Origin: Pseudogymnoascus verrucosus
Lineage: Eukaryota
Assembly (NCBI GenBank): GCA_001662655.1
Contig: KV460209.1
Direction: 5' to 3' (one strand)
Length of the DNA stretch: 64,000 nucleotides
The translations under genes and the position numbers were made by a program. Below, in pieces: positions 5,719-29,940 of this stretch. Numbering within the stretch: the stretch's first letter is position 1; each line of letters starts with the position of its first letter. The notes under the pieces were generated by a model, which saw nothing but the letters and a program-made list of their open reading frames with translations, was not told the origin of the DNA and ran no database searches.

Positions 5719-6145
5719 TGTTGTAGCAGTGGTGGCGGTTGTTGCGCCGTAAAGGTAAGGGTAGTTTCAAATATATATGCAGAGGTAGATACGGAGGAAG
5801 AAAGATGGGAGATAGATATATTCAACAAAGAGACGTTAAGCGCCACTGGATCTGGTGCCTCGACCTGATGACCCGTTCGCGAGCACGGGAGTCACACACA
5901 GCGGCTGTGCCACGCCGTCGAGCGCCTGTTGTCTCACGGTAGCGTTGGCAGGGTGATGTAACACCTTTCCCTTCCCTAACACTCAGCCGCGTCGACAAGG
6001 CTGAAGTGCATAACAACACCCCTCCATCTTCACCACCACCACCACCCTCCCAATTCAATTCCACAACCTCACGTCTCCAACTACACACAAGGTCCTCCTC
6101 TTGCCACACCCGCCACGACGGGCACTCCAACAAAAAACACACACA

Positions 6146-10266: not shown

Positions 10267-10830
10267 GTGTTTTGGTATGGCGCGTTGAGTGGTGGTTCCT
10301 GGGATTTGTTAGTTAGAGTATGCATGCGGGGTGTGGTTTTTCTGATATTGGGTGTGGGAGTGCTGAGAGAGGGGTGAGGGGGAAGGAGTGGAGGGGTGGT
10401 TAAAGGGTAGGTGTGACGGAAGTGTGGATGAGAAATACATGATGCAGGGCGAGAGTGATAGTGAGAGTGAGAGCGCGAGTAAGGGTAAGTGACGGAGAGG
10501 GTGTGAAGCAGCTCGGCGGCAGTGAAGAAGAGGGTGTGTGCAACGCGGCAAGTGAGAAATCAGTGTGATAGGCCTCACATACAAAAGTAAGACTCACCAA
10601 AAAAGCTGGATAGGTAAACCGTCAACCCGGGATTGAGTATAAAAGTATAAGAATACACGAGTCAAGCTGCCGAGAGAATCAACCACGTAAAAGGTTTGAC
10701 GTGACAAGGTCAGGGCGTGAAGGGCGTGTCAGGAGTTTAAATAAATAAATTTCGAATATCGGAATTTCGCTGTGAGGAGTTCCCGAGGGAATGGATGCAG
10801 TAGAAGGGGGAAGGGGGGGGGATAGATAAA

Positions 10831-11600
10831 AGGGAAGAAGATCAGATTAGATGGTGAGAGAAGGAAAGAAAGAGCGGTGCGGATGACTAAGTGGAGGACA
10901 TGGTTAGTATTACCGAGTAGTGGTTAAGGTTAGTTTGGATGGAGAGTAGGGGTATGAGTATGGGTATGGGTAAGGGTATGGATGTATTATAGGATAGTGT
11001 CTGTGGGTTGTGGATTTGATGGGTTGTGGTGGTGGATGAGGATGAATGGGTGGGTGATGGATGGGATGATGAGAAAGAGCTAGAGCTAGAGACAAATGAT
11101 GATGATGCCCGAAGTGGAGCAAACAAGCGCGTATGTGTGTGAAGGGATTTTTCTTTTGGCTTGTGAGAAGAGCGTGGGAGACGGAAGTGGGAGTGGGAGT
11201 GAGAGTGGAAGACAGCGAGACTGGTGAGTGGAAGGAAGAGAGGAAGAAGAGAGGGATGATCACCGGGTTGTGTGTTTGTGTGTGTTAACAAGGTGTAAAA
11301 GTAGCGTAAGAAGTGTAGTAGGATGGTGGTGAGAGTCGTGGGGGTGAATGTAGAGCGAGGGAGGGATGGAGTGAAGACTGACTATAGTAGACTGGAGTTA
11401 TAGTTGGACTAGTAGAGCTATAGTGTAAATAGGGCGTAGAGCGAGAGAGACAAGAGAGTTTGTTAGCTACGACGGTGTGTGTTTGAGCATGTTCGTTTCT
11501 GTTCTGTCGTGGTGGTTCGGCCCCTCATGGCGTCGTCTCATGCCGCGTTCTCGCATCCCAACCCTTCCTTCCCGTCCCATCTAATCTGATCTTCTTCCCT
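10831..11600. repeat. Perfect 24-bp inverted repeat (arms 10831-10854 and 11577-11600)
   Basis: agggaagaagatcagattagatgg is the exact reverse complement of ccatctaatctgatcttcttccct. The spacer is 722 nt. Confidence 0.9.
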
Positions 11601-11798
11601 GTTCTTTCCCTTGTTGTGGAGGGGGGGTGGTGGTGGGTGGAGCAGTGGTGGACTAGGGGAGTGATGAACAGGTAACAGGGAGGAGGGATGGGAGTGGACA
11701 GGGTGGATGGGAGGGAGGAGAGGTGCAGAGTCAAATATGTACATCATCCCCTTGTACATACATGATGTGCTTTTTCCTAAAACATGTATGTAGTAAGA

Positions 11799-11854
11799 TG
11801 TGCAGTTATGTGCAGTTTCGCGTGGGATGTGCAGTTCTGTGCAGCTCTGTGCAG
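11799..11854 (+). repeat. Five TGTGCAG copies
   Basis: Starts at 11799, 11809, 11828, 11838 and 11848. Confidence 0.8.
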
Positions 11855-12837
11855 TAGAAGGTGTAATCGACTCGGGGATGTGAACGGGGAGAGCGACTCT
11901 GTGCATACTGTACCATATGATGTGAACGGGGAGAGAAGCCGGTGGGTAGGTGAGGGTAGGGGGGAAGGAGGGCTTGGGAGGTTGGCGGGCTGGTGGGTGG
12001 TACTCGAGGTGGAAGTAGAGGGGTAGAAGGTGGGGGTAGACGAGAGGAGAGAGAGAGGGGTGTGTGTTCGGAGTAGCAGCGAGGGAGTGGGGAGCGGAGA
12101 GTGGAGAGCGGAGTGGAGGGGGTGGAGCGGAGAGAGAGTGGAGAGTGGAGAGTGGAGAAGTGAGAGGAAGGGGAGTAGTGAGGCGAGAGAGTAGAGTAGA
12201 GTAGGGGTAGGGGCGGGAGTGAGGGAGTATTGCCGTAGTAGTGGTGATGTAGGGCTAGTACTGGCGGCAGAGAGAGAGGCATTTTTAGGAGTGGTGGTTG
12301 TCTGACTTGTCTTGTGTGCCTTGTCGTCTAGTCTAGTATATCATGGTATAGCCACCTGATGATGGATGGCCCATCGACCTGATGAGAGAGCCGAGAAAGG
12401 AGGTAGGGGGGAAGGAGGGTAAGGGTTGAGTTGACGGGTGAGGGTATGATGAGGGAAGGGTAGATGGGTAAGGGTAGTAGACGGGTAAGGGTATGATGAA
12501 GGGTTGAAGGGTCGACGACGGGCGGGTAAGGGCAAGGGTATGTGAGGGAGGGTATGAAGCCAGACAGGCAGACAGACACACAGAATAGTCCGTTGATGGG
12601 TAGGTAGGTGGGTAGACAGTCGATGGGTAAGGGAAGAAGGGACGAAGGGAAGGAAGGGTAAAAGGGTAGAGCGGATCATACCTCACACCACCACATGGCT
12701 TGCACGGTTTGTGTGTGTTCTATGTGTGTTCCTGCTGTGCCACCTTGACTGCAGTATCTATCGCCCATCATCATCGCTCATCCTTATTGCTTCTTCTTCT
12801 GTGTGTTACTGTCTTTCTTCCTGCTGTGTTACTATCC

Positions 12838-12863
12838 TGTCTGTCTGTCTGTCTGTCTGTCTG
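12838..12863 (+). repeat. (TGTC)n microsatellite
   Basis: tgtctgtctgtctgtctgtctgtctg. Confidence 0.8.
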
Positions 12864-13302
12864 TATGTCTGCCTCATGTTGCTGTATGTCTTGATTACAC
12901 GTGGAGTGGGAGTGATTTAATGTCTCACATGCCCTTTCTACCTGCTAACCGCTACTTGCAACCCGGATGTCGTGCGGTAGGAGTGCGGCAGTTGCCATTA
13001 CTCATTCCCATCTGTGTGAGTTGCCCGTGCCGTGACTGTGTGTGTGTGCGTGAGTGTTCGCGCCTTCCCTTCCCACTGCCACTTCCTTCCTCTACCCACC
13101 ACCACATCCTCTCCCACACGCGTCTTTGTCGTCGTCGTCTCTCTCTCCACTCTCCCCTCCGATGCCGCCCGGTCCAATTCCTTGGCTCTTGGCCTTTCAT
13201 TCAAGGTATGGGTAGAGTAGCCGTCCTAGCCCTTACAGCAACCCTTAAACCCTCCTTGTCTCCACTCTCTTAACCCTCTTGTCTCCACTTCCTCTTCGCA
13301 CC

Positions 13303-13441
13303 ATCTGATTAAGTACGGAATTTCAATCTGATTAGGGAGGATACGACTCTACGGCGTCTACTTCCTCCTAATGTACATCTGATTACTCCTTCTTGTGGAG
13401 TAGTTTACATCTGATTACCCTCCTCCCATCCAATCTGATTA
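13303..13441 (+). promoter_or_regulatory. Cluster of five ATCTGATTA motifs (SreA/Sre1-like iron-repression GATA elements)
   Basis: Exact copies at 13303, 13326, 13377, 13409 and 13433. Each is one mismatch from the SreA consensus ATCWGATAA and lies between two siderophore genes. Confidence 0.7.
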
Positions 13442-14071
13442 GAATAAGGCCGTGGACCCTATTATTGTCGGACCCATCATCGTCAATCCACCGTCACCGT
13501 CAATCAATCCACCGCCGTCAATCCATCCACCCACGAATCCATAACCCACCCCGTCCATACTATACAGCACATACACACCCATCCATCTATCCATCCAGTC
13601 CTATACCGCCCTCCCACCCCGTATCCCGGCACAGAAAGTACTTTACTTTACTTCCTTCCGTGATAAAATGAGGTCAGATGGGGTCATATGAGAGCTGATC
13701 GGCCGGATAGATCAGGAAGGAAAGCCGGTCTAGCCTTGGGGGATACATCGGATACATGGGTAGGGTTGACGTTTACTCTATAACTGCTGCACATACACAC
13801 ACATACATACATACATAACACACATAATACACACACACAACCAACCACCTACAATCCACCCACCACCACCACCACCACCACACCAACCACACACCCCCAT
13901 CTTCACAACAACCAACAACCCAAACCCAACCCCTGCCACGATCACACCTCCTTTCCCCCCTCCACCTTCCACACTTCCTCCCCCCTCCACCCCTAAACCA
14001 CTCACGCAACCCTTCCACCCCCCCTCGGTGAAGAATCTTCCCTGTCAAACCCCTTCCCCGTTCCTGGACTA

Positions 14072-14088
14072 ATCTGATGATCTGATAA
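14072..14088 (+). promoter_or_regulatory. Consensus SreA site ATCTGATAA (14080-14088) overlapping ATCTGATGA (14072-14080)
   Basis: Sequence aatctgatgatctgataaga. Confidence 0.7.
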
Positions 14089-15744
14089 GATTTCTTCACC
14101 TTGGCGAAACCCGCTCCCGCCCCACCCCGGTCTCCACTCCCGCCCTTGCTTCCACCTTACTACAGTACACCTGCGTTTTTTCTCGCTTGCACGCGCCTTG
14201 TATGTGTAGTTAGGTCTTGGGATACCCCCCACTCCGCTTCCGTCTCTTTCTCGCCCGCGGTCGCTTTTGAACGACTACTACTACGGAGTGTGCTGGTATG
14301 GTAGAAACTTACTTACCGCCGGACGAGGAGAAGGGAAGTACCGAGGACGGGCGGAATGGGCGTGTGGACTGTGAAGTGTGAAGTGTGAGGTGCCAGGTTT
14401 TTTTTTACCCCTCTACTATCCTTAGCTACCCTTAGCTACCCTCACCCTCACCTTTACTTTACTTTACCCCTCCACAGCTACGTCCACACGACTACCGGCA
14501 CACCTTCCTCTTCAATACGCGGCTGCACCAAAAATGCGCCTAGATGCATACAATTATGCTCTCTTTACTGGGCACACACCCTGCACCTTCCTTGAGCATT
14601 CAATCACATCACACCTTTCATTGCAGTACTGTGCTGCTGCCTTCACAGCCACCTCCATCACAGCCATCACAGCCATCACCACCACCTCAATCATCCACAC
14701 CACCACCCACCACCACCCACCACAACCTCCATCAGCCACCAGCCACTATCCAACTCCCCACCACCATCATCCATCAATCATCTCCCATCACCTTCATTAA
14801 TCACTCTTTACTACTATCACCAACAAACTAACTCAACTCCAACTCCCAGTAAGCCTTGCCACTGCTTGTACTCCTCACTAGTGGGGTGGCTCTTAGTGGG
14901 GTTAAGTTAGCTCCATTACTCCATTAGTGGGAATGCCTCATCATTCATTCACAGCTTCATCCCACTTTCATCCCACCTCTCTCCCATTCATACTCCACTC
15001 CCTCACATCTCCCTCCTCCCCTCCCATCCCATCCCCATCATAGGTTCCCATCCCACCTCCTCCTTCCCCCTTCAGCTTCCATCACACTCCCATCACCGCG
15101 CATCGCATCACTAGCCGCCCATCTTCCTTTTCTTTTTCCCTTGGGGCCCGGGACCTGACCGAACCTTCTCATAGCCTCACAGCATCACCCCACCCTATTA
15201 CACTCCATAACTCCTCCTGCCCATCCCATCCCATCGCATCACATCTCCCGCCTTGCATGTGCCGCCTCCCATCCCACCCACCTATCCCTAACCCACTCCC
15301 CCCCTGCAGAACCCTAATGGAGTCCCAGTCCCCAAGGTGACCGGCGACGAACCGATCGATCACTGATCATCGGTGATGATTCATCCCGGACGACCCTCAA
15401 ACAAACCCTCACCCTCACCCTCACACCCAAACTATCCCTCCCCCATCCACACTCTCTACAGTCAGAAAACAAACAAACCGGTGTTCCACGCGAAGCGCAA
15501 ATAACAGAAAAAAAGCTGTCTCACACACAGCCCACCGCGCCCAGACAAATCTCACTTACAGCCCCCATTACATTGCATCCCCAAACCCCTCCATCCTATC
15601 CATTCATTTTATCACATATTACAAAAACCGCCGATGCATGTTTCTGTCTCACGTTACACCCTTCCCTCTTTGACCTCGCATCAATCCATACCTAACACCC
15701 GCTGCTGAGACACCTAACCGCCACACCCACCAAAAGCCCCAATA

Positions 15745-18700
15745 ATGCCCGCCCTCTCCATCCTCAACCCCGACCCGCCTCTCCTCCCCGGGCCGGGCCT
15801 GCTACACGATCTTGTGAGCTGGGACGACGCTGGTGATGCACCCGCCCTCGACTTCCTCGGTCCCGAAGGGTCGGATGAGCGGTACAGCTACACCTACTCC
15901 GAGCTGCAACGCTGCGTAGCTAGCCTAGCTGCAACACTACATGAGACTCTCAGATCCTCTTCCTCCTCTAGACAACAAGGGGACCCTGACACCGCAGCCA
16001 GCAGACCCCAGCTCATCATCCCCCTGCTAATCCCGCAGTCCCCAGCGCTCTACATCGCGCAGCTAGCCGCGCTGCAGGTCGGCGCGGCGTTCTGCCCGAT
16101 CAATCTCGACGCGCCTAGGGAGCGTATCAAGTTTATTGCTGGGGATGTTAAGGCGGAGGTTATCATATCGACGCGCGATAATGGTGTTGCTGTCACGTGG
16201 GAGGGGGGCCCGATTCCTATTTTGATAGATGAGCATTTCCCAACCCCCCCCGAACTGGTGGACCTTCCCCCTTTTCCGGAGACGACTACGACGGCGTCGT
16301 TGGCGTATGTGATGTACACTTCCGGCTCGACGGGTCTTCCAAAGGGGGTGGGTGTCAGTCATCGTGCGGCGACGCAGTCGTTACTCGCGCATGAGGTTCT
16401 CATACCGACGTTCTCGCGCTTCCTCCAGTTCGCTGCGCCCTCCTTCGACGTCTCGGTGTTTGAGATCTTCTTCCCCCTCTTTAGGAGGGCCACGCTGATA
16501 GCCTGCCATCGCGAGAGGCTCCTGAATGATCTCCCTGGGACTATCAATCTTATGGAAGTCGACGGATGCGAGTTAACTCCCACAGTCGTCGGATCGCTGC
16601 TCCTCCGCCGCTCCAACGTGCCGGGGTTGAAGTTGCTACTGACGATTGGGGAGATGCTTACGAGGCCTGTTGTGGACGAGTTTGGGGAAGCGGAGGGGAG
16701 GGTAGGGATGTTGTATGGCATGTACGGACCCACGGAGGCGGCGATACATTGCACGGCATACACCAACATGGCTGCCGGCTCCAAAGTCGGTAACATAGGA
16801 CGCCCATTCTCAACCGTCTCCTGCTTCATCGCTGCCATCCCCGACCCCGCCGTCCCTTCCAGCGCAGAGACGCTGGATATCCTCCCCCTCGGCGAAGTGG
16901 GCGAGCTGGTGCTGGGAGGAACGCAGTTGGCGGATGGGTATCTGAATCGTGAGAAAGAAAACAAAGCCGCGTTCGTGACTTACAACAACTCCCCCGCCTA
17001 CCGTACCGGCGACAAGGGGAGGATACTAGACGACGGCACGATAGAAGTCATGGGCCGCATCAGCGCTGGCCAAGTCAAATTACGCGGTCAGCGCGTGGAG
17101 CTCGGCGAGATCGAGGAGGTGGTGTATAAACACCCGGGCATCGAACTCGCCTTTGCGAGCGTGCTGGAGGGGATGTTGATCATCTTCGCGCGTGCCGGAA
17201 AGGGGGAAGACGTCGTGGTGGAGGATGTGGTGGAGACCTGCGAGCAATGGCTTCCCCGCTACATGGTCCCCAGCGAAATCGTCATCATGGCAGAATTCCC
17301 CTACCTCCCTTCTGGAAAAATCGACAAGAAGAAGTTGGAAGCTGAGTACCTCCGTACCCGTGCCGACGAAGATGGTGCGGACGAGGGGGGAGTGGTTAGG
17401 GAGACGGAGAAGATTGTGGGGAGGGCGCTGATGACGCTGTTGAAAGTCCGCGTTAACCCCACGAAGCGCCTCGCTACTTATGGTCTCGATTCCCTGACTG
17501 CCATCCGTCTTGCATCGCATCTCCGGAGCGCGAGACTACGGATATCAGCCGTGGAGATCTTGGAGGCGGAGACGGCGAGGGAGATTGCGAGGGTGTGTGA
17601 GGAGCGTCTGAGTCAACCCGATGCCACCTCCCAGGCCCCCGAGGTGTTCGATTTCTCCGTCCTTGAAGGGCCGGTGACAGAGGTGCTGGCGGAGATGGGC
17701 GTGACCGAGGCGTTTGACGAGGTGTTGCCGTGTACGCCGCTGCAGGATGCTATGTTACTCGAGACGGCTGTTGATCCGGTTGCGTATTGTAATTATATTG
17801 AGCTGCGCATCAACGACGTCGACACGCATCGGGTTGCTGATGCGTTGAGGGAGTTGGCGAGGCATAACCCGTTGCTGAGAACGGGGTTCGTGGAGTGTGA
17901 AAGCGAGTGGAGCGCTTTTTCGCAGGTTGTGTGGCCTGCCCTGGCAGCGGATCAGATTGTTATTACTGATGAGTCTGGAGACGAGAGGATGGACGACGAT
18001 AGGGGCGGGTTGGAGATGTTGAGGCCGATACGGATGAGGGTTTGTCCAGTCGAGAGGGGGGTGGTAGTGAGAGCGGATATTCATCATGCGCTTTATGATG
18101 GGTGGAGTTTGGAGTTGGTTATCAGGGATTTGGAGACTATACTGTCTTCCTCCTTACCATCTACCTTCACCTCCGCCTCCTCACCAGACAACAACGACAA
18201 CGACACCAAACCCATCAGCACCATCCTCACACCCCGCCCCCCATTCCGCGCTATCGTCGAACACACACTCCGCCTCGCCACGAGATCAATGGAGAAGGAG
18301 AGGCAGTACTGGAAAGATCACCTCGCGCACTTCTCACCCGGCTCATTGCCGTCTTTTCACTCTAACGTTGGTGTGGCGCGGGGGTTGGATATCGTCGGCC
18401 ATATGACGGCTATTTCCACCTCCGCACTGGAGAAATCCGCTGCCCTTGCGGGAGTTAATAGCCAGGCGATGGCGCAGACTGCATACGCTCTCGTCCTATC
18501 AGCTTACCTCGGATCGAAAGATATATGTTTCGGCTCCGTCTTCTCAGGCCGCTCAGCGGATGTAGAAGGGATCGAAGAGATTGCAGGGCCGTGTATTGCG
18601 ACGTTGCCGGTGAGGATTAATATCGGGAATGGAACTGTGGGGGGTGTTATGGCGGAAATGCAGAGGGTGGGGAGGAGGCATATGGAGAATGAGGGGTTGG

Positions 18701-21700
18701 GGTTGAGAGAGATACAAGGGTTGGTGGAGGCGGAAGGGGGGGTGTTTGATACGTTGGTTATTTGGCAGCAGAGCCTCGCTGATGATTCTGATGACGTGGT
18801 GGTGGGGGGTAAGGGGAAGAGGGTACAGTTGGTAAAAGCGAGGGATTACCTCGAGTTCGCATTAACTCTCGAAATCACCCCTGCCGCTGGGGAGGGGAAG
18901 GTAAGGTTCGATGCTAACTACCAGACTGCGATCTTTGGACGGGAGATGATAGAGGTGTTGTTGAGACAGGTGGAGGGGGTGTTGGGGGCGTTTATGAGGG
19001 ATGGGATGGAGGCGGGTGTTGAGGGAATTTTTGGGGGGGTGGAGGGAGAGGGGGTTATGGCTGTTTTTGAGCGGGGGGTAGGTGGTGAGTTGAGTTTATT
19101 GGCTGCTGCTAATGGTGAAGACGGTGGGGGAGTTACAGCGGTGGGGGGTAAGTCGAAGGTAAGGGGTAATAGGAGGGCGAATGCGATTGCACGACTGGTT
19201 ACCGGAAGAGACGACGTCGAGGTAACCCTCCAGCAATCTATTGGGGGGAAGGTAAGAGGCTACCTCGGACGTGTCGGGCGGGGGATTAAGGTCCTCGTCA
19301 TCGCACCTCAGTTGGAGGATGATGTGGTCCTCCTCCCTCTCGGCGCAGAAGGCGAGCTCTGCATCTCAGGCGCCTCCTTGGGTGAGGGCGATATCGAGAT
19401 TGACGGGACGGAGTGGGTGGATTGTGGTCCTGTGCATGGGATGCTCCTACGCACGGAGGATTTGGTGAGACTCCTTCCTGGTGGTGAAGTTATCTACCGT
19501 GGGAGAAAGGGGGAGGAAGCTTTGGTTAGGGGACAGAGAGTTGATGTGGGGATGGTTGAAGGGGTTGTGCTTTCTCACCCCGCTGTTGGGGGTGGGGAGT
19601 GTACGACGGTGTTGGTGGGGGAGGGGAGGTTGGTGAGTTTCTTTACCCCTGTTGATGCGGATAGTGGGGAGGGGGACTTTAAAATCCTAGATGCCCAGCG
19701 CGACGTGCTGGAAGGGATTTACGCCGATCTAGACGCCGCTGTGCCTTCGTACGCTGTGCCGGTCTCGATTGTACCCGTTTCTTCCCTCCCTGTCACTGTG
19801 GAGGGGGATATTGACACGGAGAAGCTCAAAGCTGCATACGCGACACTCACACCCAACCAGCTGGCGCAATTCGCCAACCCCTCCGCCTCAACAGCGGAAT
19901 ACACATGGACACCTCTTGAATCCATTATCCTCTCTGCCGTGTCTTCAGTGGCTAAATCCCCAGAAGCGGTGATAAAACCGAATACACCATTTGCAGCGCT
20001 GGGGATTGATTCGATAGCTGCGATTGGGCTGGTGAGGGAACTTAAGGAAGTGGGGGTGAAGACGGATGTTGGGGGGGTGTTGAGGTTTGGGACTGTGAGG
20101 AGGTTGGGAGGGTGGGTTGAGGGGGAGAGGGCTAAGGCCGAGGAGGCGAAGGTGATAGAAGATAAAGAACTGGGAGTGGGAGGGCTCCCGACGCCTGAGG
20201 AGATTATCTTCGAGCCGACACTGGTAGATGAGGTTCGCAACGCTGTCGCACGGCGCGGATGGACTGTGGAGAGGGTGTTGCCGTGTACGCCGCTGCAGGA
20301 GGCTATGCTTGCTGCCAGCGAACTGGCTTCTGTCAGCGAACCCTCTACCGCTGAGCACTCGTCAGCTGTCGTTGGTGACCCATCGACTGGCGACAAGGAG
20401 GAGGGGGCGTACGTCAACCGCGTCCTCCTCTCCCTATCTGTCAGCATCGAACAGGTTGAAGAAGCGTGGCGCGAGATGGTGAAGAGACATGAGATTCTAA
20501 GGACTTGTTTTGTGAGGGCTGGACATGCGAGGTATGCGTTTTGTCAGGTTGTCCTTGGAGGGTACGAGCATGAGAGTAGGGTTGTTGAAGTCGCCGACGC
20601 TGCGGGGGTGGAGGGTGTGATGACCCGCGGAGTGAGCTGGCAAGTCGAGGGGAAGGGAGAGGGAGGGGGAGAGGTCAGGCCGCCGTATGAGTTGACGTAT
20701 ACCCGCGTCGCGGGTGGGGACGGCGGGGTGAAGTTGGTCCTAGCGATGCATCATGCGCTTTATGATGGGTTTGCGATGGGTGTTCTTTATGACGAGATGG
20801 AGACGTATTTGAGAGGGGGGGAGTTGAGGGAGGCGGTGGGGTTTGCGCCGTTTCTGAGGTATATGAGTGGTGTTGATGCCGGGAAGGCGGATGGGCACTG
20901 GAAGGGGTTGTTGGGTAATTTCAACCCTGTCGCTTTTACACCACCGTCAGAGGAGGTAGGGGAGAGAGGGGTGAAGACAGAGAGTGTAGAAGAGGTGCAG
21001 AGGCAAAACCACGTCTTGACGATACCGCTATCCATGAGCTTAACGGATATCGAAGAGAGACTAGCCCACAACGACGCATCCCTCCTCTCAGTCTGCCAAA
21101 CAGCCTGGGCCGCCCTCCTCGCCCGCCGCACCTCAAGCACAGATATCTGCCTCGGCAGCGTCGTGAGCGGACGCACCGTCCCTGTTGAAGGCTTGAATCG
21201 ACTCGTCGCGCCTTGTTTTAATACTATCCCCTTTCGGCTCCGGAATCTCCACAGATTAAGCTATTTAGAAGCGTTCCGAGCCTTGCAAGAACAGAATGTC
21301 GAGGCGGTACCGTGGCAGATGACTGGGCTGCGGAGAGTACAAGCCCTCGCTGGGGTGGAGGGGGGTGAGGGGCTGTTTGATACTCTCATCCTCGTCCAGA
21401 CGCCGGAACGGGAGATGGACGACAAGGTGTGGAGGGTGGAGGAGGATAGAGGGGGTATGGACTTTCCGGTTGTGGTGGAGATTGTACCCCGCCCGGGGAA
21501 GGGGAGTGGTGGGGTGTTGGAGGTTACCCTGCATGTACATGACCTCCCACTGGGGAGGGAGGAGGTGAGGGCGGTGTTGGAGAAATTCGATAGGTTTCTG
21601 AGGATTGCGCTGCTGGAGCCGAGGGAGCAAATCGTACCGGGTGGGTTGAAGAGTAAGTGGGCTGCTAAGATGGCGGAGAGACGAGATGCCAGATCCCACC

Positions 21701-24700
21701 GCAGTGATGCCGCCGCTGCTGCTGCTGACGACGAGGCCGTTGGGAAGGAGTGGACGGATCTTGAAGTAGTGGTGAGAAGTGTGATAGCGGCGTTCACGAC
21801 GGTGCCAGAGGGGGAGATTGGGAGGGGGGCGAGCATTTATAGGTTGGGGCTTGATAGTATTAATGCGGTTCAGGTGGCGACGGTATTGAGGGGGAGGGGG
21901 TATAAGGTTGTCGCGGGAGAGGTGTTGATGTATCCCTCTGTTAGGGAGTTGGCGGCGTGGATTGGGGGGAAGAGCGCTTTGTCTGCTGGCGCTGTGACGG
22001 GTGGTGAGGTGGGGGAGGGGGGGGAGTATGATTTCAAATCCTTCGACGAGCGCCACCGAGCTGCTATCATTAAAGAACTTGAGAAGTTCGGGGTGCAGAG
22101 GGAGGTTGAGGGTGTATACCCCTGCACGCCTGTGCAGAACGGGATGTTAGCACAGACGCTGCATAGCTCGGGCGTGGAATATGTTAACTCTTACACCCTC
22201 CAGCTTTCCGCGGATGTCGAGTTAGAGAAGGTCAAGGAGGCGTGGAAGGTGGTGGCGGAGGCTTGTCCGATGCTTAGGGCGGGGTTTGTGGGGACGGATA
22301 AGGGGTTTGCTGTTATTGTTTATGGAGCTTCTGGCACAACAGTTCCTTGGGTCGATGAAACTGGTGGGGAGGGGGGGAATGATAAGGGGATGACGGTGGA
22401 AGAGCTGGCGAGGAGGCCGTGGTGGTTGGAGGTTCTCAGGAGGGAGGGCGGGGAGGTGTGTGTCAAGTTCACGGCGCATCATGCGCTTTATGATGCACAG
22501 TCTCTTCATCAGATTTTTGAGGATGTACAGGCTGTGTATTCTCACGGGTTTACACCAAGCTACCCCTCTTTCCTCCCCCTCCTCGGCGCGATCCTCAACT
22601 CCAACTCCCCCGCCGACGAGGAAAGGCGGAAATCCTTCTGGATCTCGCAGAATCTCGCCGTCCACCGCTTTCCGGACTTGACGCCCCTGAAGGTGGAGAG
22701 TACGCGGAGTGTTGTGAGTAAGACGATATCGCGGATGGGGTTGAAAGAGATTGAGGAGAGGTGTAGGGAGATGGGTGTTAGTGTCCAAGCCGTCGGACAG
22801 GCGGTTTGGGCGAGGCTTTTGGGAGCGTATGTGGGAGAGGGGAGGGTGGCTTTTGGGGTCGTGCTTAGTGGGAGGGGAGTCGCTGGTGGTGATGGGGAGG
22901 GGGGGGAGGTGCCTTTTCCGACTATTGTTACGGTGCCAGTTTGTTATGAAGTGGAGGGGGATGGTGGGAAGGACGGCAATGGGAAACTGTTGGAGAATGT
23001 GATGAAGGGCATTGCGAGGGTGGCGGAGTGGCAGTTCACCCCACTGACGGATGTGCAGAGGTGGACGGGGAATACGGGGGGGTTGTTTGATACGCTTTTT
23101 GCTTATCAGAAATCCTCCAGTGATGTCCAGGAGGGGGCAAAGGTAAGTGGCGAGGGAGATGAGGTGTGGAAAATCGTGGAAGAGGACGCAGAAGCCGATT
23201 TCGCCGTCTCGATTGAGATGTTACCCGAGGGTGGGGAGATGATACTCCAGCTTACGGTTAAGGAGAGCGTGGTGCCGAGGGAACAGGCGGAGTTGATGGT
23301 GAGGCAGTTTGATGCGCTGATGGTGGATTTGTTGAACCCCGGGGCCGATGGGCTTGATGAGAAGATCCTGTCTATCACACCCCCAGAGCACTCGACGCTA
23401 TCGGATTCTGACGAGGGGGATATGCTACTCCATGGTTTCGTGGAGAGGCAGGCTCGCTTGACGCCGAACAAGGTGGCCTTGGAGTTCACCACCAGTCTTG
23501 AGGGTGGAGAGGGCAACACGGCGGCTTGGACGTACGATCAGCTCGATAAGGAGGCTAATCGCATCGCGAACCTCGTGCGGAACCTCGGTGCTGTGCAGGG
23601 GCAGTTAATTGCGATTTGCTTTGACAAGTGCCCCGAGGCGTCGTTTTCCACCGTGGGTGTTATGAAGGCGGGGAGTGCGTATGTAGCGCTTGACCCCGGC
23701 GCACCAGCTGATCGGGTGAAGTTCATTATGCAAGATTCCGGGGCGACGGTGGTGTTGACCGCCGGGAAGCCTGCGGAGAGTTTGAAAGCGACATTTGAGG
23801 GCAGCGAGATCCAGGTTGTTGATCTAGGCACCACGGACCTGCTGGGGGGGTGTAGTACGGAACCCCCGATTCTGGCTCGCCCGATTGATAGCCAGGATTC
23901 GTCGTACTGCCTCTACACGTCCGGCACGACCGGGACGCCGAAGGGGTGCGAACTCACGCATGAAAACGCCGTGCAAGCCATGTACGCGTTCCAGCACCTC
24001 TTCCGCGGCCACTGGACCGAGGAGTCGAAATGGCTCCAGTTCGCGAGTTTCCACTTCGACGTCTCGGTACTTGAGCAATTCTGGAGCTGGAGCGTGGGCA
24101 TCTGTGTCGCGAGTGCGCCGCGGGATTTGATATTCGAGGATATCCCCGGAGCCATCCGCGCCTTGGGAATCACGCATTTAGATTTAACTCCTAGTCTGGC
24201 GAGGTTGCTGCACCCGGATGAGGTACCGAAATTGTGTAAGGGGGTCTTCATCACGGGGGGCGAGCAGTTGAGACAGGATATCCTCGATGTGTGGGGGGAG
24301 AAGGCGTGTATCTATAATGGGTATGGACCGACTGAGGCGACGATAGGGGTTACGATGTACCCTCGCGTGCCGAGGAATGGGAAGCCTGCGAATATCGGAC
24401 CGCAGTTCCTGAATGTCGGGTCTTTCGTCCTGAAACCGGGGACGAGCGAGCCGGTGCTAAGAGGCGCGGTGGGGGAGCTCTGCGTGAGTGGGAAGTTGGT
24501 GGGGAAGGGGTATTTGAACCGTCCTGAGCTTACCGCTGAGCGCTTCCCCTATCTTGAGGCTCTGGGAGAGAGGGTGTACAGAACGGGCGATCTGGTGAGG
24601 ATTTGTCATGATGGGAGTTTCCTCTTCCTCGGCCGGGCGGACGATCAGGTGAAGTTACGCGGGCAGAGGCTGGAGCTGACAGAGATCACGGAGGTGATTA

Positions 24701-27700
24701 AGCGCGGGGTGGAGGGGGTGGGGGAGGTGGTTACGTTGGTGTTGAAGCATAGTGCGCAGCTTAAGGAGCAGCTTGTTGCGTTTTTCGTCCCCGCTGCTTC
24801 TGCTGGGGTTGAGGAGCCGATGGAACTCATTGGAGCGATGCGCGATACTTGCACGAGTCGCTTGCCGGGGTATATGGTTCCTACGCATTTCGTCCCGTTG
24901 GAGGCGCTGCCGCTGTCGCCGAATAATAAGGCGGATGGGAAGGCGTTAGCGAGGTTGTATGATGAGCTTTCTATGGAGGAGTTGCAGCGTCTTGGTGCTG
25001 CGGGACAGGAGGGTAGGCAGTGGAGTGGGGTGGAGAAGGAGGTGCTGGGTGTGCTGGCGGAGTGTATGGGGGTGGAGGTTGGAGAGTTGAAGAGTGGAAC
25101 GAATATCTTTGAGTTGGGCTTTGATTCGATCTCTGTCATTGGCCTTGCGCAGCGCTTGCAGCGCGCTGGATATACGGGGGCGAAGGCGGCGGTTGTGATG
25201 AGGAATTCGGGGGTGGAGGCGCTGGTGGGGGTGTTGGTTGTGGATGGCGCCGGGGAGCAGGGCGCAGGGGGTGGAGAGGTCGTGGCGGCACAGCAGAGGA
25301 TTACGGCGTTTGCGCAGAGGAATTTACTCGGTGCGGCGGAGGAGATGGGTGTTGATCCTGATGAAGTGGAGGGTCTGGCGCCGTGCACTGCGGCGCAGGC
25401 GGGGATGATCTACAGGTTCCTTGATAGTGAGGGGCCGCTGTATTTCATGAGCTTTGCGTTTGAGCTCTGGGAGGGGGTGGATGTGGAGAAGTTGCGCGAG
25501 GCGTGGTGGAGAGTTGTGAGGGGGTTGGAGGTGTTGAGGATGGGGTTTGTGTTTACGCCTGATGGGTGCGCGCAGGTTGTTCTTAAGGAGGGCGAGGTTC
25601 CTTGGGGTGTTGATAGGGGGTTTGTGGGGATGGAGAAGGGAGAGGCGCTGGTGAGGCCGTGGGGGGTTGGGGTGAGTGAGCAGGAGGGGAAGAGGGTGAT
25701 GAAGTTGGAGATCTTTCATGGGCTTTATGATGGGGCTAGTCTCCCGCTTTTGCTGAGGAAGGTGGAGGAGGAGTATAAGGGCGTGGAGGGGATCGATTAC
25801 GGACCTTCTTTCATGAGTTTATTGCCGCATGGACCTCTCGCTGCTGTTGAGGGCGCAGAGGCATTCTGGAAGGGGGCGTTGGAGACGGCGGAGTTTAACC
25901 CGTTGCCGCTTCTTGAGAATGCGCAGGGGGGCGATGTGAGTGTCTCACGCCGCGTGCAAGACCTGGGACACTTGGAGGCGCTGAGGCAGTCGCTCGGTGT
26001 TACGTATCAGGCTATCCTGCAGGCAGCGTGGATCTCAGCGTTCCGTGCTCAATTCCCTGCTTCCGCCGCGCCGTCGTTCGGGAATGTCATTTCCGGGCGC
26101 GCTATCGATTTCAGCGGTGCGGAGAACGTGGTTGGACCACTTCTTAACACCCTCGTCTTCCATGTCGACATCAAGGAGGGGATGACCTGGAAAGAACTCA
26201 TCCAGGCGTGTCACTCCTTCAACGTCGGCGCCATGCTGTTCCAGCACTCGCCATTGAAGGATGTGCAGAGGTGGTGTGGTGAGAGCGGACGGGAGTTGTT
26301 TGACACCCTCTTTGTGTTCCAACGCGAGGAGGAGGGGGGTGAGGAGGGGTTGTGGAGAGAGTTGGAGGGGGAGGCGGTGGCGGATTATCCGATGGCGTTT
26401 GAGGCTACGTTGATGGGTGGGGGGGATGTGAGGATTGCGCTTGTTGGGCAGGGCAAGTATGTCAACGAGGAGGTTGCAGGGGGGCTGTTGGAGAGGGTTG
26501 AGAGTGAGCTTGCTGCTTTGAAGGAGCCGGAGGGGGAGATTCCTGGTGTTGAGGGGTCGGTGAGAGGGGGTCGATTGGTGAAGAGCGGCAACGAAACCCA
26601 GGCGCCGGATACGACATCAGACAAGGACTTTGAGTGGACACCCACGGCGAGTGTGATTCGTGCGCAGATCTCGGAACTTAGTAAGGTCGAGGAGGACAGC
26701 ATCGCGGTGAATACGACGCTCTTCTCGCTGGGGCTGGATAGTATCGATGTCATCAAGCTCGCCTCACGACTTAAGAAGGCTGGCGTCAAGATCTCGGTCA
26801 GTGCGATTGTGAAGAGTCAGACCGTTGCGAAGATGATGGGGAGTATACAGCTCGAGCAGGGGCCGGTGGAGGTGAAGACGAGCATTGATGAACTTGAGCG
26901 CCAGTTGAGCGAGTCGTTGACTAGGGAGGAGGTGGAAGGGGCAACGGCGGTGCTGCCGGCGACGCCGTTGCAGGAGGGGATGGTGGCTGAGATGGTCGCG
27001 TCGGGGTATAGGAAGTACTTCAACCATGAGCTGTATCGCGTTAAGGGGGGTGTCGATATGGATGGGTTGAAAAAGGCATGGGAGATGGTGGTGGCGGAGT
27101 TTGATATCCTGCGCACTTCGTTTGTGGGGGTGGAGGATGTGGAGATTGATGTTGGCTTTGCGCAGGTTGTGCGTCCTGCTTCTGATCGTAGTATCTGGCG
27201 CACCGCTGGGTTCGAGGAGGATGCGGATCTGGGAGTGCGGACGAAACAGCTTATTGAGGAGGCGGTTGAGCGGGCAAAGACGGGAAGTCTGCTGCAGCTC
27301 GTGGATATCACACATGGAGAGGAGAGATACTACCTCCTCTCCATCTCGCACGCGCTGTACGACGGATGGTCTCTCCAGGCCCTCCACGCCAATGTGCAGA
27401 AAGCTTACAACGGGAAAACACTCACCAATCCGAGCGTGCGAATCCCGCTCGAGCAGCTGCTAAATGCGAATGGACCCGAAGCCACGAAATACTGGCGCAC
27501 TGCGCTGAGCGGTCTGCCTAAGTCGGAGTTCCCGCTGCACAACTCGACATCAGAAGGCGTTAACCGGTTTGAATTCGCGTCTTCGATTCCGTTGGATGAT
27601 GTCAATGCCTTCTGCCGGAAGAGCAACATCAGTCTCCAGACGCTGGGACAGACGGCATGGGCTATCCTTCTTGCCAGCTGCCTCAAGCGCCTCGATGTGG

Positions 27701-29940
27701 CCTTTGGAGTCGTACGGTCGTGCAGAGACACCGAGGAGACAAGTGAACTCATGTTCCCGTTGATGAACACTGTCGTTGTCCGCGCGGTCATCCACGGCGA
27801 TTGCAAGGGGATGCTTCAGTATATGCAAGAAAGCAGCAACGCCATGCGCGCTTACCAGCATTTCCCGTTGAGAAAGGCGCAGGCCCTTGCTGGGAGACAG
27901 GGAGGTGCGCTGTTTGATACTCTGTTTATCTATCAAGGTAAAGCGCAGGAGGCTACTGGCGAGGTGCTAGCGGAGGCGGTGGAGAGTCAGGCAGAGGTGG
28001 AGTTTAAGGTCTGTGTGGAGATGGAGGTTGTTGCCGGGGAACTGGTGTGGAGGATTGCGTGTAGGGATGCGGCGAGGACGGAGGGGGAGACGGAAGAGTT
28101 GTTGAGGGATCTTGATGCGCTGATGGGGAGGATCGTGGGGGATGTGGAGGCGGAGGTCATTGTTGCTGCTCAGGGGCAGGTGGCGCTGTGTGGGCTAGAG
28201 CCGTTTGTGGATGAGTCGTCTATGGTGGGGGTGAAAGGTGTTGCGAAGGCGCCGAAGAGTGGAGGGGGTGTGTGGAGTCCGACGGAGCTTGCGATTCGGG
28301 GTGTGTTGTCGCAGGTCTCGAAGACCCCGGAGGGGGAGATTGGGAGGGGGGATAGTATCTTCCATCTTGGGCTTGACTCGATTAGTGCCATCAAGGTGTC
28401 GTCGCTGTTGAGGAGGCGGGATGTCAGGATTACTGTTGGGGAGATTATGAAGAATAGCAGTATTCAGGAGATGGGTGCGTTGTTGGCGGGGAGGGTTGAT
28501 ACCGAGGCCAAGACGCAGACGAAGGATGTTGAGGCTGTTATCACTGCGTCGCTGAAGCATATTGACAAGACGGCGCTGTTGGGGGAAGTTGGGGTTGAAG
28601 AGGGTGATATTGAGGATATCATGCCTGTATCAGCCGGACAACTATACATGCTCGCGCGCTGGGAGCAGACGGGAGGCGCGCAGTTTGAGGCGAACTTCCA
28701 GTATAAACTCGACGGTGCGGTTGATGCAGGGAGGTTGGAGAAGGCATGGGAGGCTCTTATGAAGCGTCATGCGATTCTACGGACTGTGTTTGCTTTCGTG
28801 GAAGATGAGGAAGTGAGGGCTGTCCAGGTTGTTCTGAAGGAAAGGAGCAATCCGGTCAAGTATGCCTCGTCTTCTAAGACGGCAGTATCGCTCTTGGATC
28901 CTGTGTTTCTCGTTGTTGAAGAAGTGGGAGGGGAAAAGACGATCAGTCTCCGCCTCCTTCACGCGCTCTACGATGGCGTAAGTCTTCAGCTGCTCATCCG
29001 CGACCTGGAGACGCTGTACTTGCACCCCGACTCCGCGCTTCCGCCTCCACTAAGCTTCAAGGAGTTCATCGCCCGTGACCTCGACGATGAGTCTCGTAAG
29101 AAGCAGAAGACGTTCTGGGAATCCTATCTCCCGCGCATTGAACTCGCAAGCATGCCAGAGAGCCCAGATCTTACACGCAGGGTGGAGATCTTCAAACCTA
29201 GTGTTCCTATTGGGGATATCACGTCTGCGGCGAGGAAAGCGGGGGTTACTGTCGATGCCTTGCTTTTAGCTGCGTTTTCTAAAGCCTATGAGGTTACGAA
29301 ACAATCTAGTAGCGAAGAGACGGTCATCGGGCTGTATCTTGCCAATCGGTCTGCTACGACTGATTTATCAGAGTTGGTGGCACCGACGCTTAATCTGGTG
29401 CCTTTGCGGATCCAATGTTCGAGCGATGGGCTTGAGGATGTTGCTTCAGGGGTGCAGAGAGACCTCCTGAAGTTGAGCGAGGTGGCGAATGTAGGCGCGA
29501 GTTTGGCGGATGTGTATAGCTGGACGGGAAGGAGTGTGGAGGTGTTTGTTAATGTGCTTAAGACCACCACCCCGTCCTCCTCCGATGACGAGGGTGGGGA
29601 CGAGAAAACAAGCAACCTCTTCGCCGAGAGTCTAAGTGAAGTGGATATGCTCCGACCCAGGGCTGAAGTCATCGACGTCGTCCCTAACACGGCCCTACTC
29701 ACTGCGTTTGAGAAGAGAGAAGAGTTGAGAGGAGCGTATTCGGTGAGTCCTCACTCTTTATATACACCTGTTTCGATGGGAGTGCTAACTAGTTATCAGG
29801 CGTCGGTGGATATTGAGCTTCGTCTTGTGGATGGCGGGAGAGGGATAGATGTTGGGCTTTTTGCGCCGGGGGGGCTGCTTGGGTTGGAAGACGGGGAGAG
29901 GCTTGTTGACGTTTTGGGGGAGGTTTTGAGGGGGTTGTAG
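15745..29940 (+). CDS. NPS2: Ferrichrome-family siderophore NRPS (NPS2/SidC class), A-T-C-dA-T-C-T-C-A-T-C-T-C-T-C; probable intron 29743-29799
   Basis: Two intact A domains (YTSGSTGLPKG and YTSGTTGTPKG, each with YGPTE and YRTGD). Six G[LIF]DS thiolation motifs (~17482, 20002, 21847, 25117, 26731, 28369). Six xH[AG]LYD condensation motifs. Terminal T-C-T-C tail. Adjacent to sidA. Confidence 0.95.
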   Translation: MPALSILNPDPPLLPGPGLLHDLVSWDDAGDAPALDFLGPEGSDERYSYTYSELQRCVASLAATLHETLRSSSSSRQQGDPDTAASRPQLIIPLLIPQSPALYIAQLAALQVGAAFCPINLDAPRERIKFIAGDVKAEVIISTRDNGVAVTWEGGPIPILIDEHFPTPPELVDLPPFPETTTTASLAYVMYTSGSTGLPKGVGVSHRAATQSLLAHEVLIPTFSRFLQFAAPSFDVSVFEIFFPLFRRATLIACHRERLLNDLPGTINLMEVDGCELTPTVVGSLLLRRSNVPGLKLLLTIGEMLTRPVVDEFGEAEGRVGMLYGMYGPTEAAIHCTAYTNMAAGSKVGNIGRPFSTVSCFIAAIPDPAVPSSAETLDILPLGEVGELVLGGTQLADGYLNREKENKAAFVTYNNSPAYRTGDKGRILDDGTIEVMGRISAGQVKLRGQRVELGEIEEVVYKHPGIELAFASVLEGMLIIFARAGKGEDVVVEDVVETCEQWLPRYMVPSEIVIMAEFPYLPSGKIDKKKLEAEYLRTRADEDGADEGGVVRETEKIVGRALMTLLKVRVNPTKRLATYGLDSLTAIRLASHLRSARLRISAVEILEAETAREIARVCEERLSQPDATSQAPEVFDFSVLEGPVTEVLAEMGVTEAFDEVLPCTPLQDAMLLETAVDPVAYCNYIELRINDVDTHRVADALRELARHNPLLRTGFVECESEWSAFSQVVWPALAADQIVITDESGDERMDDDRGGLEMLRPIRMRVCPVERGVVVRADIHHALYDGWSLELVIRDLETILSSSLPSTFTSASSPDNNDNDTKPISTILTPRPPFRAIVEHTLRLATRSMEKERQYWKDHLAHFSPGSLPSFHSNVGVARGLDIVGHMTAISTSALEKSAALAGVNSQAMAQTAYALVLSAYLGSKDICFGSVFSGRSADVEGIEEIAGPCIATLPVRINIGNGTVGGVMAEMQRVGRRHMENEGLGLREIQGLVEAEGGVFDTLVIWQQSLADDSDDVVVGGKGKRVQLVKARDYLEFALTLEITPAAGEGKVRFDANYQTAIFGREMIEVLLRQVEGVLGAFMRDGMEAGVEGIFGGVEGEGVMAVFERGVGGELSLLAAANGEDGGGVTAVGGKSKVRGNRRANAIARLVTGRDDVEVTLQQSIGGKVRGYLGRVGRGIKVLVIAPQLEDDVVLLPLGAEGELCISGASLGEGDIEIDGTEWVDCGPVHGMLLRTEDLVRLLPGGEVIYRGRKGEEALVRGQRVDVGMVEGVVLSHPAVGGGECTTVLVGEGRLVSFFTPVDADSGEGDFKILDAQRDVLEGIYADLDAAVPSYAVPVSIVPVSSLPVTVEGDIDTEKLKAAYATLTPNQLAQFANPSASTAEYTWTPLESIILSAVSSVAKSPEAVIKPNTPFAALGIDSIAAIGLVRELKEVGVKTDVGGVLRFGTVRRLGGWVEGERAKAEEAKVIEDKELGVGGLPTPEEIIFEPTLVDEVRNAVARRGWTVERVLPCTPLQEAMLAASELASVSEPSTAEHSSAVVGDPSTGDKEEGAYVNRVLLSLSVSIEQVEEAWREMVKRHEILRTCFVRAGHARYAFCQVVLGGYEHESRVVEVADAAGVEGVMTRGVSWQVEGKGEGGGEVRPPYELTYTRVAGGDGGVKLVLAMHHALYDGFAMGVLYDEMETYLRGGELREAVGFAPFLRYMSGVDAGKADGHWKGLLGNFNPVAFTPPSEEVGERGVKTESVEEVQRQNHVLTIPLSMSLTDIEERLAHNDASLLSVCQTAWAALLARRTSSTDICLGSVVSGRTVPVEGLNRLVAPCFNTIPFRLRNLHRLSYLEAFRALQEQNVEAVPWQMTGLRRVQALAGVEGGEGLFDTLILVQTPEREMDDKVWRVEEDRGGMDFPVVVEIVPRPGKGSGGVLEVTLHVHDLPLGREEVRAVLEKFDRFLRIALLEPREQIVPGGLKSKWAAKMAERRDARSHRSDAAAAAADDEAVGKEWTDLEVVVRSVIAAFTTVPEGEIGRGASIYRLGLDSINAVQVATVLRGRGYKVVAGEVLMYPSVRELAAWIGGKSALSAGAVTGGEVGEGGEYDFKSFDERHRAAIIKELEKFGVQREVEGVYPCTPVQNGMLAQTLHSSGVEYVNSYTLQLSADVELEKVKEAWKVVAEACPMLRAGFVGTDKGFAVIVYGASGTTVPWVDETGGEGGNDKGMTVEELARRPWWLEVLRREGGEVCVKFTAHHALYDAQSLHQIFEDVQAVYSHGFTPSYPSFLPLLGAILNSNSPADEERRKSFWISQNLAVHRFPDLTPLKVESTRSVVSKTISRMGLKEIEERCREMGVSVQAVGQAVWARLLGAYVGEGRVAFGVVLSGRGVAGGDGEGGEVPFPTIVTVPVCYEVEGDGGKDGNGKLLENVMKGIARVAEWQFTPLTDVQRWTGNTGGLFDTLFAYQKSSSDVQEGAKVSGEGDEVWKIVEEDAEADFAVSIEMLPEGGEMILQLTVKESVVPREQAELMVRQFDALMVDLLNPGADGLDEKILSITPPEHSTLSDSDEGDMLLHGFVERQARLTPNKVALEFTTSLEGGEGNTAAWTYDQLDKEANRIANLVRNLGAVQGQLIAICFDKCPEASFSTVGVMKAGSAYVALDPGAPADRVKFIMQDSGATVVLTAGKPAESLKATFEGSEIQVVDLGTTDLLGGCSTEPPILARPIDSQDSSYCLYTSGTTGTPKGCELTHENAVQAMYAFQHLFRGHWTEESKWLQFASFHFDVSVLEQFWSWSVGICVASAPRDLIFEDIPGAIRALGITHLDLTPSLARLLHPDEVPKLCKGVFITGGEQLRQDILDVWGEKACIYNGYGPTEATIGVTMYPRVPRNGKPANIGPQFLNVGSFVLKPGTSEPVLRGAVGELCVSGKLVGKGYLNRPELTAERFPYLEALGERVYRTGDLVRICHDGSFLFLGRADDQVKLRGQRLELTEITEVIKRGVEGVGEVVTLVLKHSAQLKEQLVAFFVPAASAGVEEPMELIGAMRDTCTSRLPGYMVPTHFVPLEALPLSPNNKADGKALARLYDELSMEELQRLGAAGQEGRQWSGVEKEVLGVLAECMGVEVGELKSGTNIFELGFDSISVIGLAQRLQRAGYTGAKAAVVMRNSGVEALVGVLVVDGAGEQGAGGGEVVAAQQRITAFAQRNLLGAAEEMGVDPDEVEGLAPCTAAQAGMIYRFLDSEGPLYFMSFAFELWEGVDVEKLREAWWRVVRGLEVLRMGFVFTPDGCAQVVLKEGEVPWGVDRGFVGMEKGEALVRPWGVGVSEQEGKRVMKLEIFHGLYDGASLPLLLRKVEEEYKGVEGIDYGPSFMSLLPHGPLAAVEGAEAFWKGALETAEFNPLPLLENAQGGDVSVSRRVQDLGHLEALRQSLGVTYQAILQAAWISAFRAQFPASAAPSFGNVISGRAIDFSGAENVVGPLLNTLVFHVDIKEGMTWKELIQACHSFNVGAMLFQHSPLKDVQRWCGESGRELFDTLFVFQREEEGGEEGLWRELEGEAVADYPMAFEATLMGGGDVRIALVGQGKYVNEEVAGGLLERVESELAALKEPEGEIPGVEGSVRGGRLVKSGNETQAPDTTSDKDFEWTPTASVIRAQISELSKVEEDSIAVNTTLFSLGLDSIDVIKLASRLKKAGVKISVSAIVKSQTVAKMMGSIQLEQGPVEVKTSIDELERQLSESLTREEVEGATAVLPATPLQEGMVAEMVASGYRKYFNHELYRVKGGVDMDGLKKAWEMVVAEFDILRTSFVGVEDVEIDVGFAQVVRPASDRSIWRTAGFEEDADLGVRTKQLIEEAVERAKTGSLLQLVDITHGEERYYLLSISHALYDGWSLQALHANVQKAYNGKTLTNPSVRIPLEQLLNANGPEATKYWRTALSGLPKSEFPLHNSTSEGVNRFEFASSIPLDDVNAFCRKSNISLQTLGQTAWAILLASCLKRLDVAFGVVRSCRDTEETSELMFPLMNTVVVRAVIHGDCKGMLQYMQESSNAMRAYQHFPLRKAQALAGRQGGALFDTLFIYQGKAQEATGEVLAEAVESQAEVEFKVCVEMEVVAGELVWRIACRDAARTEGETEELLRDLDALMGRIVGDVEAEVIVAAQGQVALCGLEPFVDESSMVGVKGVAKAPKSGGGVWSPTELAIRGVLSQVSKTPEGEIGRGDSIFHLGLDSISAIKVSSLLRRRDVRITVGEIMKNSSIQEMGALLAGRVDTEAKTQTKDVEAVITASLKHIDKTALLGEVGVEEGDIEDIMPVSAGQLYMLARWEQTGGAQFEANFQYKLDGAVDAGRLEKAWEALMKRHAILRTVFAFVEDEEVRAVQVVLKERSNPVKYASSSKTAVSLLDPVFLVVEEVGGEKTISLRLLHALYDGVSLQLLIRDLETLYLHPDSALPPPLSFKEFIARDLDDESRKKQKTFWESYLPRIELASMPESPDLTRRVEIFKPSVPIGDITSAARKAGVTVDALLLAAFSKAYEVTKQSSSEETVIGLYLANRSATTDLSELVAPTLNLVPLRIQCSSDGLEDVASGVQRDLLKLSEVANVGASLADVYSWTGRSVEVFVNVLKTTTPSSSDDEGGDEKTSNLFAESLSEVDMLRPRAEVIDVVPNTALLTAFEKREELRGAYSVSPHSLYTPVSMGVLTSYQASVDIELRLVDGGRGIDVGLFAPGGLLGLEDGERLVDVLGEVLRGL

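Follow-up and report, generated by a model that had tools for sequence, protein, structure and literature searches.

The systems closest to the locus described herein are the type III synthetase Sib1 of S. pombe and the type IV NPS2 enzymes of filamentous ascomycetes. In the published model of Sib1, the first of two working adenylation (A) domains loads all three Gly residues, and a degenerate A domain is kept (PMC2644324 and PMC10192304; Schwecke 2006 as cited there). For the NPS2 lineage, the assignment of Gly to A1, of Ser to A2 and of the third carrier (T3) additionally to A1 rests on modelling and on Sib1, from which the Gly specificity of NPS2 A1 was itself inferred; the same authors hold that the 10-residue code fails for these enzymes (PMC2644324). 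Use of A1 for T3 by type IV enzymes has also been proposed in PMC10192304, which reports in vitro loading by SidC A3 and SidD A1 of carriers that lie one and two modules further downstream. Jenner et al. tested only SidC. Against this background, we analysed a 64-kb window of Pseudogymnoascus verrucosus DNA (64,000 nt, no N letters) in which a synthetase of this family carries a gutted second A domain.

The window contains, on the + strand, an open frame of 4740 codons (15718-29940), within which the synthetase, P0001, starts at an ATG at 15745 and runs to 29940 as a protein of 4731 aa. Profiles built in this analysis resolve it into the layout A-T-C-dA-T-C-T-C-A-T-C-T-C-T-C, where dA denotes the degenerate domain. 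The first module comprises an intact A1 (15799-17358), T1 (17401-17592, YGLDSL) and C1 (17722-18984, HHALYDG), and beyond the dA region lie an intact T2 (19915-20109, LGIDSI, with its Ser codon at 20011-20013) and C2 (20275-21600, HHALYDG). These are followed by T3-C3 (21757-23322), an A-less unit typical of type IV enzymes, an intact A3 (23422-24966) and the terminal series T4-C4-T5-C5-T6-C6 (25033-29577), in which the carrier serines and the His-Asp motifs of the C domains are all kept. Across the whole protein six of six carrier serines and six of six C-domain motifs are present. Domain calls with Pfam return two AMP-binding and six PP-binding matches, in line with the two working A domains for six carriers counted in an earlier reading of the DNA made from its letters alone (hereafter, the sequence-only reading). 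Near the 3′ end, the frame includes a probable 57-nt in-frame intron (29743-29799, +; GTGAGT ... GCTAAC ... CAG), and the homologue consensus lacks the 19 residues encoded there.

P0001 displays the features of the NPS2 lineage, namely a terminal A-T-C followed by T-C-T-C with six C domains in all, and a first A pocket of the module-1 type together with a last A pocket of the N5-acetyl-N5-hydroxyornithine (AHO) type. A FastTree tree that also includes an NPS2-type protein of Bipolaris maydis nests it among type IV proteins. It is the ferrichrome-family synthetase of its genome: searches of that genome with A3 and with T5-C5-T6 revealed no second one, the next best matches reaching 34% and 30%, respectively. 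Of 40 A-domain matches in this genome, 30 were fetched, and the 10 left out had E-values above 1e-5. The same genome also holds a SidD/NPS6-like gene of A-T-C-dA-T-C layout (L031; G000:C10:138000-147000, -), which is likely a fusarinine synthetase.

The region between C1 and T2 spans 310 aa (18985-19914), in comparison to 564-579 aa in the four of four nearest intact relatives tested, and therefore some 255-270 aa are missing. Between fixed anchors the distances are 349 versus 609-620. The sequence-only reading had put the C1-T2 gap at about 270 aa; that figure falls slightly short of the actual spacing, and it is the missing part that amounts to 255-270 aa. What is left begins with an eroded N-terminal stub (18985-19200, +) ending in NRRANAIARLV (19168-19200). 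A candidate 54-nt in-frame intron (19085-19138, +) lies just before the remnant, with a similar Val-Ser ... Ala-Asn pattern in homologues; its splicing would shorten the stub by 18 aa. At the deletion junction (19198-19264, +) the A2 core, with its P-loop, FDxS pocket and YGPxE motif, is gone, and about 21 bridging residues of uncertain homology stand in its place. The dA2 remnant proper (19264-19842, +) corresponds to positions 315-502 of a 506-position A-domain profile and includes a small C-terminal subdomain (19519-19842, +) that is conserved and predicted to be folded. Its late motifs are degenerate: LPLGAEGELCISG (19333-19371), LRTEDL (19447-19464), GRKGEEALVRGQRVD (19501-19545) and EGDID (19801-19815). 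The A1-A10 names given to these motifs are labels that we take to be the standard ones.

A search for P-loop, FDx, YGxxE and GKxD patterns in all six frames of 18961-19920 was empty. In the alignments, from which the state of the catalytic Lys was read, all 14 intact A2 domains retain this residue and none of eight remnants does (Asp in six, Gly in one, Asn in one), with the Asp of P0001 encoded at 19807-19809 (+); within the C-terminal subdomain, ATP- and catalysis-linked residues are lost in eight of eight cases. Thus the description of a gutted domain in the sequence-only reading, with its core gone and degenerate motifs at the quoted places (NRRANAIARLV to EGDID), with P-loop, pocket and YGPTE absent and with Asp replacing the Lys, is borne out in each of these respects. 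With its core deleted and its Lys lost, A2 cannot adenylate; as judged from its residues, the domain is catalytically dead.

In the remaining A domains the pockets read DVFELIMIHK (A1) and DVLDIGGIGK (A3). Neither readout varies among the clade members possessing the domain in question, and both recur in the closest relatives with an intact A2. Table 2 of PMC2644324 lists the former for AMP1 of ChNPS2 and FgNPS2 (Gly, a type that is in print by inference) and the latter for AMP4 of ChNPS2 (AHO), so the manual readouts made previously were right and match published codes. The intact A2 pockets of relatives resemble an entry predicted as Ser in the same paper. Two positions of the A2 pocket are occupied by Ala/Val in the nearest intact relatives P0009, P0131 and P0236, instead of the Gly/Ile seen in A2 of most type IV and V enzymes, and on these residues the specificity of A2 may have drifted already before the loss. 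Downstream of the remnant, T2 and C2 show mean identities within the clade of 79.5 and 79.1%, respectively, with intact motifs.

A collapse of the assembly over the missing A2 core, to which the sequence-only reading was itself alert, or a decaying pseudogene would also give a shortened domain. The region is G-rich and of low complexity, and the comparison rests on short-read contigs, drawn from four of 13 listed runs over 18400-20600. One of these (X1) is a possible source of the assembly and is not independent. The junction at 19198-19264 is nevertheless crossed by single contigs in three of three other runs, none with a large insert: X2, from another organism and study (18448-20594, with 41 gap letters), X3, from the study of X1 but another organism (19107-20552), and X7 (18448-19469). 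Furthermore, the breakpoints are identical in all eight aligned clade sequences, the frame stays open over 4740 codons and A3 is 91.8-93% conserved, all of which makes artefact or decay extremely improbable.

With regard to the distribution of the remnant, the best homologues of P0001 are Pseudogymnoascus proteins (79-84% identity across the full length). P0123, P0011 and P0005 carry the same remnant, and the P. australis protein P0008 lacks one more piece, possibly through a gene-model effect. In a survey of 406 fetched proteins, 192 were NPS2-type, the criterion being 50% identity or more between their last A domain and A3. A module-2 remnant occurs in 11 of these 192 (P0001 counted; two are P. 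destructans models, and two models start inside the remnant), whilst A2 is of full length in 55 type IV models, so the remnant is not shared by all NPS2 orthologues; such sharing is what the earlier reading had named as counting against it. Complete four-A type V proteins make up 104 of the 192, and the survey is skewed towards them, with few Sordariomycetes, since the second homologue search favoured such proteins. A representative search added no further carriers of a module-2 remnant, and two metagenome scans yielded no Pseudogymnoascus DNA, one giving no relatives among 267 stretches and the other 78 loci, the best at 46%. Every named Pseudogymnoascus sequence found falls in the remnant clade, and the loss is thus common to the whole Pseudogymnoascus clade sampled, beyond this P. 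verrucosus strain.

The suggested alignment to NPS2 orthologues and phylogeny have mapped the deletion and, by FastTree analysis, place the loss before the sampled radiation of the genus. In a 38-row tree of C3-A3-T4-C4, ten remnant carriers form one group (SH-like 100) needing a single change, and sit in a clade with seven full-A2 proteins, beside Claussenomyces and helotialean proteins. In a second tree, of the C-terminal part of A domains, the remnants sit on a long stem and join the module-2 A domains (SH-like 95); both trees were made with FastTree only and have long outgroup branches. Since the carriers form one clade, the loss of A2 is a single, old event that predates the sampled Pseudogymnoascus radiation, and on the first of these trees it appears independent of Sib1, within the filamentous ascomycetes. 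The remnant itself, by its placement, descends from a module-2 A domain of predicted Ser specificity. Its derivation from the SidD-like gene of this genome was considered and rejected, as the SidD-like dA groups apart in the A-domain tree.

Shortened A domains were also seen elsewhere in the family. P0253 and P0407 (Logan), which lie outside the Pseudogymnoascus clade, have the layout A-T-C-T-C-T-C-A-T-C-T-C-T-C with A2 cleanly absent and a 59-aa linker. They may represent another independent two-A synthetase, or else an artefact of the gene models. Two type V proteins, P0360 of Rhizodiscina lignyota and P0244 of Diplodia seriata, have a shortened third A domain. That of P0360 retains profile positions 322-503, similar to the remnant of P0001, and that of P0244 may be a gene-model error, the other D. 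seriata model (P0136) being intact. In P0128, P0139, P0230 and P0286 an A-domain C-terminal remnant of 100-120 aa precedes T6 and is a trace of the proposed six-module ancestor.

Whether the remnant of P0001 has a role is a separate matter from its loss of function. Among seven clade sequences it is 67.7% identical, whilst the equivalent segments of A1 and A3 reach 88.0 and 91.8%, respectively; C1 stands at 71% and linkers span 51-79%. The remnant is relaxed and by rate alone is indistinguishable from a linker; since it diverges about as fast as linkers do, the loss itself is more certain than any selection for a role as spacer. Of the columns in the C-terminal subdomain, 22 of the 37 that intact A2 conserves have remained invariant, in comparison to 13 of the 66 others (OR 6.0, p 7e-5), whilst the barrel half shows no such pattern (13/34 vs 15/44 columns invariant; OR 1.2, p 0.81). 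These p values are rough, as the sequences are related, and the same test returned p 0.05 or less for two of four linker controls. Modelled with AlphaFold from 16 sequences (mean pLDDT 62), C1-dA-T2 scores 59-86 in the subdomain, a figure that intact homologues among the aligned sequences may have inflated, 79-92 in T2 and 29-47 over the remainder of the remnant; folded from its single sequence, the remnant has a mean pLDDT of 37, which is uninformative. Foldseek with the model retrieves NRPS modules via the C domain (rmsd 14-22 A over the whole module) and nothing specific on the remnant.

We find it somewhat probable that the C-terminal subdomain is kept as a folded spacer. The competing view, that the remnant is neutral debris persisting through frame constraint alone and with no structural role, is a plausible if less probable one: the terminal branches of the remnant (0.18-0.57, where the corresponding part of A1 and A3 has 0.02-0.11), its identity within the linker range, the unpatterned and poorly modelled barrel half, the response of the linker controls and the existence of P0253 without any A2 all agree with it. 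It sits less well with the retention in the subdomain of columns conserved in intact A2 whilst ATP- and catalysis-linked residues have been lost in eight of eight cases, with the folded state modelled for that subdomain, and with the retention of nearly the same segment by two independent dA domains. On the A profile, the retained parts are 315-502 in P0001, 325-491 in the SidD-like dA of the same genome and 322-503 in module 3 of P0360. It is tempting, if doubtful, to go further and read the subdomain as a docking adaptor, kept by selection, through which A1 gains access to T2. The breakpoint at about 315-325, which recurs in three independently dead A domains (Pseudogymnoascus NPS2 A2, SidD/NPS6 A2 and Rhizodiscina NPS2 A3), would then mark a minimal scaffold on which fungal NRPSs generally rely for inter-module loading.

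For the enzyme as a whole, we propose descent from a type IV NPS2 ferricrocin synthetase in which A2 lost its catalytic core a single time, in the common ancestor of the Pseudogymnoascus clade sampled here. A1 would then activate Gly and charge T1, T2 and T3, of which T3 would have to be reached by A1 in the type IV layout already; A3 would charge T4-T6 with N5-acetyl-N5-hydroxyornithine; C1-C5 would join the six residues and the last C domain would cyclise them, giving ferrichrome (Gly3) in place of ferricrocin. The remnant must keep the frame, its C-terminal subdomain probably serving as a folded spacer before T2. We regard this scheme of Gly on T1-T3, AHO on T4-T6 and a ferrichrome product, in which the loading is inferred, as likely. 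The same product would arise if A1 built Gly-Gly-Gly on T1 by amide formation of the SidC A2 kind, with T2 and T3 relaying the chain or bypassed, since one carrier suffices for SidC A2 to make Gly3 in vitro (PMC10192304). That activity, however, belongs to a SidC-lineage pocket of DVQ..H type, whilst A1 here has the pocket of intact type IV enzymes; moreover, P0001 offers one C domain per bond, the case for which PMC10192304 proposes inter-module loading, and the motifs of T2, T3, C1 and C2 are intact, all of which renders assembly on T1 unlikely.

More improbable still is the loading of T2 in trans by another A domain, or of Ser or Ala by a relaxed A1, with ferricrocin or a mixture as the product. 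The genome does hold other A domains (40 matches), and the A1 pocket was at first held to be a Ser candidate in PMC2644324. No stray A2-like core was found at the other fetched loci of this genome, however, the best being 32-34% identical to intact A2 (32% in the comparison bearing on trans loading), and the products reported for two Pseudogymnoascus species include ferrichrome and no ferricrocin (PMC4364562, PMC12305646).

In cultures of P. destructans 20631-21, desferrichrome was matched to a standard and was intracellular by imaging; GMDG_02314 is listed there as the Sid2 homologue, and this cyclic AHO3 hexapeptide is thereby in print for P. destructans, tied to the orthologue by BLAST only (PMC4364562). 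GMDG_02314 is P0005 of our survey and carries the A2 remnant. From broth of P. verrucosus FAE27, ferrichrome and fusarinines are listed and ferricrocin is not, on culture chemistry alone (PMC12305646). The available text of these two papers reports no targeted search for ferricrocin and makes no mention of an A2 domain loss. Detection of ferrichrome is by itself no proof of the mechanism, because intact SidC makes ferrichrome in vitro when Ser is withheld, and only ferricrocin in vivo (PMC10192304). The switch from ferricrocin to ferrichrome suggested by the sequence-only reading nonetheless gains support from the two species reported with ferrichrome, and the Ser-containing ferricrocin that would have spoken against it is not listed in these genus-level reports.

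Divergent from the synthetase gene lies an L-ornithine N5-monooxygenase (sidA-like) gene for precursor supply (8115-10082, -; PF13434, E 1.6e-100). The long intergenic stretch between the two (10083-15744) holds one GATA box, ATCTGATAA (14080-14088, +; two matches in the 64-kb window), which matches what we take to be the consensus of the SreA-type iron repressor. The neighbours at 1-7204 and 30753-63951 (MOR2/PAG1, CENP-L, a phage-type RNA polymerase, Rad26, a thiolase, an adaptin and a GYF protein) look like ordinary housekeeping genes, and the cluster is therefore composed of sidA and the NRPS alone. Synteny of sidA and NRPS is also seen in L036, and for P. destructans the supplement of PMC4364562 lists the pair GMDG_02313/02314.

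Comparison with known synthetases sets P0001 between established types. It shares with Sib1 two working A domains, one degenerate A domain, six T and six C domains, as well as near-identical Gly- and AHO-type pockets, and the product of Sib1 is ferrichrome (PMC2644324). By the description in that paper, however, the A-less T-C of Sib1 follows module 1 directly, and its degenerate A domain, which one of two trees relates to the module-3 A domain, lies ahead of the third carrier; in P0001 the remnant is the module-2 A domain and stands in front of T2, and T3-C3 forms the A-less unit. Hence, whilst the type III count of two complete A domains, one degenerate A domain and six T-C units is found in P0001, the type III order is not, and with its dead domain at module 2 the enzyme is not of type III. 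Its resemblance to the type IV enzymes (F. graminearum NPS2, M. grisea SSM1 and B. bassiana FerS; PMC2644324, PMC8490459) extends to the order of T and C domains, the pockets of A1 and the last A, orthology by tree and an A-less T-C after the second module (T3-C3). It departs from them in that three complete A domains with a Ser-type second are not present, the A2 core being deleted and the Lys lost, and in a predicted product of ferrichrome rather than ferricrocin.

The dA of SidD/NPS6 is similarly truncated at its N-terminal side, by about 290 aa, with the C-terminal part kept (PMC8162485), as P0001 keeps profile positions 315-502 and misses 255-270 aa; loading of the SidD T2 by A1 has been demonstrated (PMC10192304). 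SidD/NPS6 is, unlike P0001, a two-module iterative fusarinine/coprogen enzyme, and the remnant groups with NPS2 A2 (SH-like 95). As the SidD dA does not group with it, the likeness is convergent. In Xanthoria parietina, loss of Ser loading likewise gave a two-A ferrichrome synthetase, XpSidC, clade-wide and with its product identified by heterologous expression (PMC13462969). That enzyme is of the SidC lineage and lost a whole N-terminal module, whereas P0001 belongs to the NPS2 lineage and lost only the A2 core, keeping six carriers. No description of the A2-remnant architecture in Pseudogymnoascus was found in the literature searched, which was mostly open papers, and the supplementary trees of PMC13462969 could include one.

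Pseudogymnoascus thus offers a type IV enzyme in which A2 has been knocked out naturally; the published chemistry fits the prediction, and the case therefore supports the substrate assignments made for NPS2. P0001 would be a clean enzyme for testing the loading of three carriers by one A domain, and the loss of A2 would explain the ferrichrome reported in the bat white-nose fungus. It would represent another independent route from ferricrocin to ferrichrome beside those of Sib1 and XpSidC, and it reveals neither new chemistry nor a new enzyme class. What is new is the position of the dead A domain and its independent, genus-wide loss; the logic is that already known from Sib1, SidD and XpSidC.
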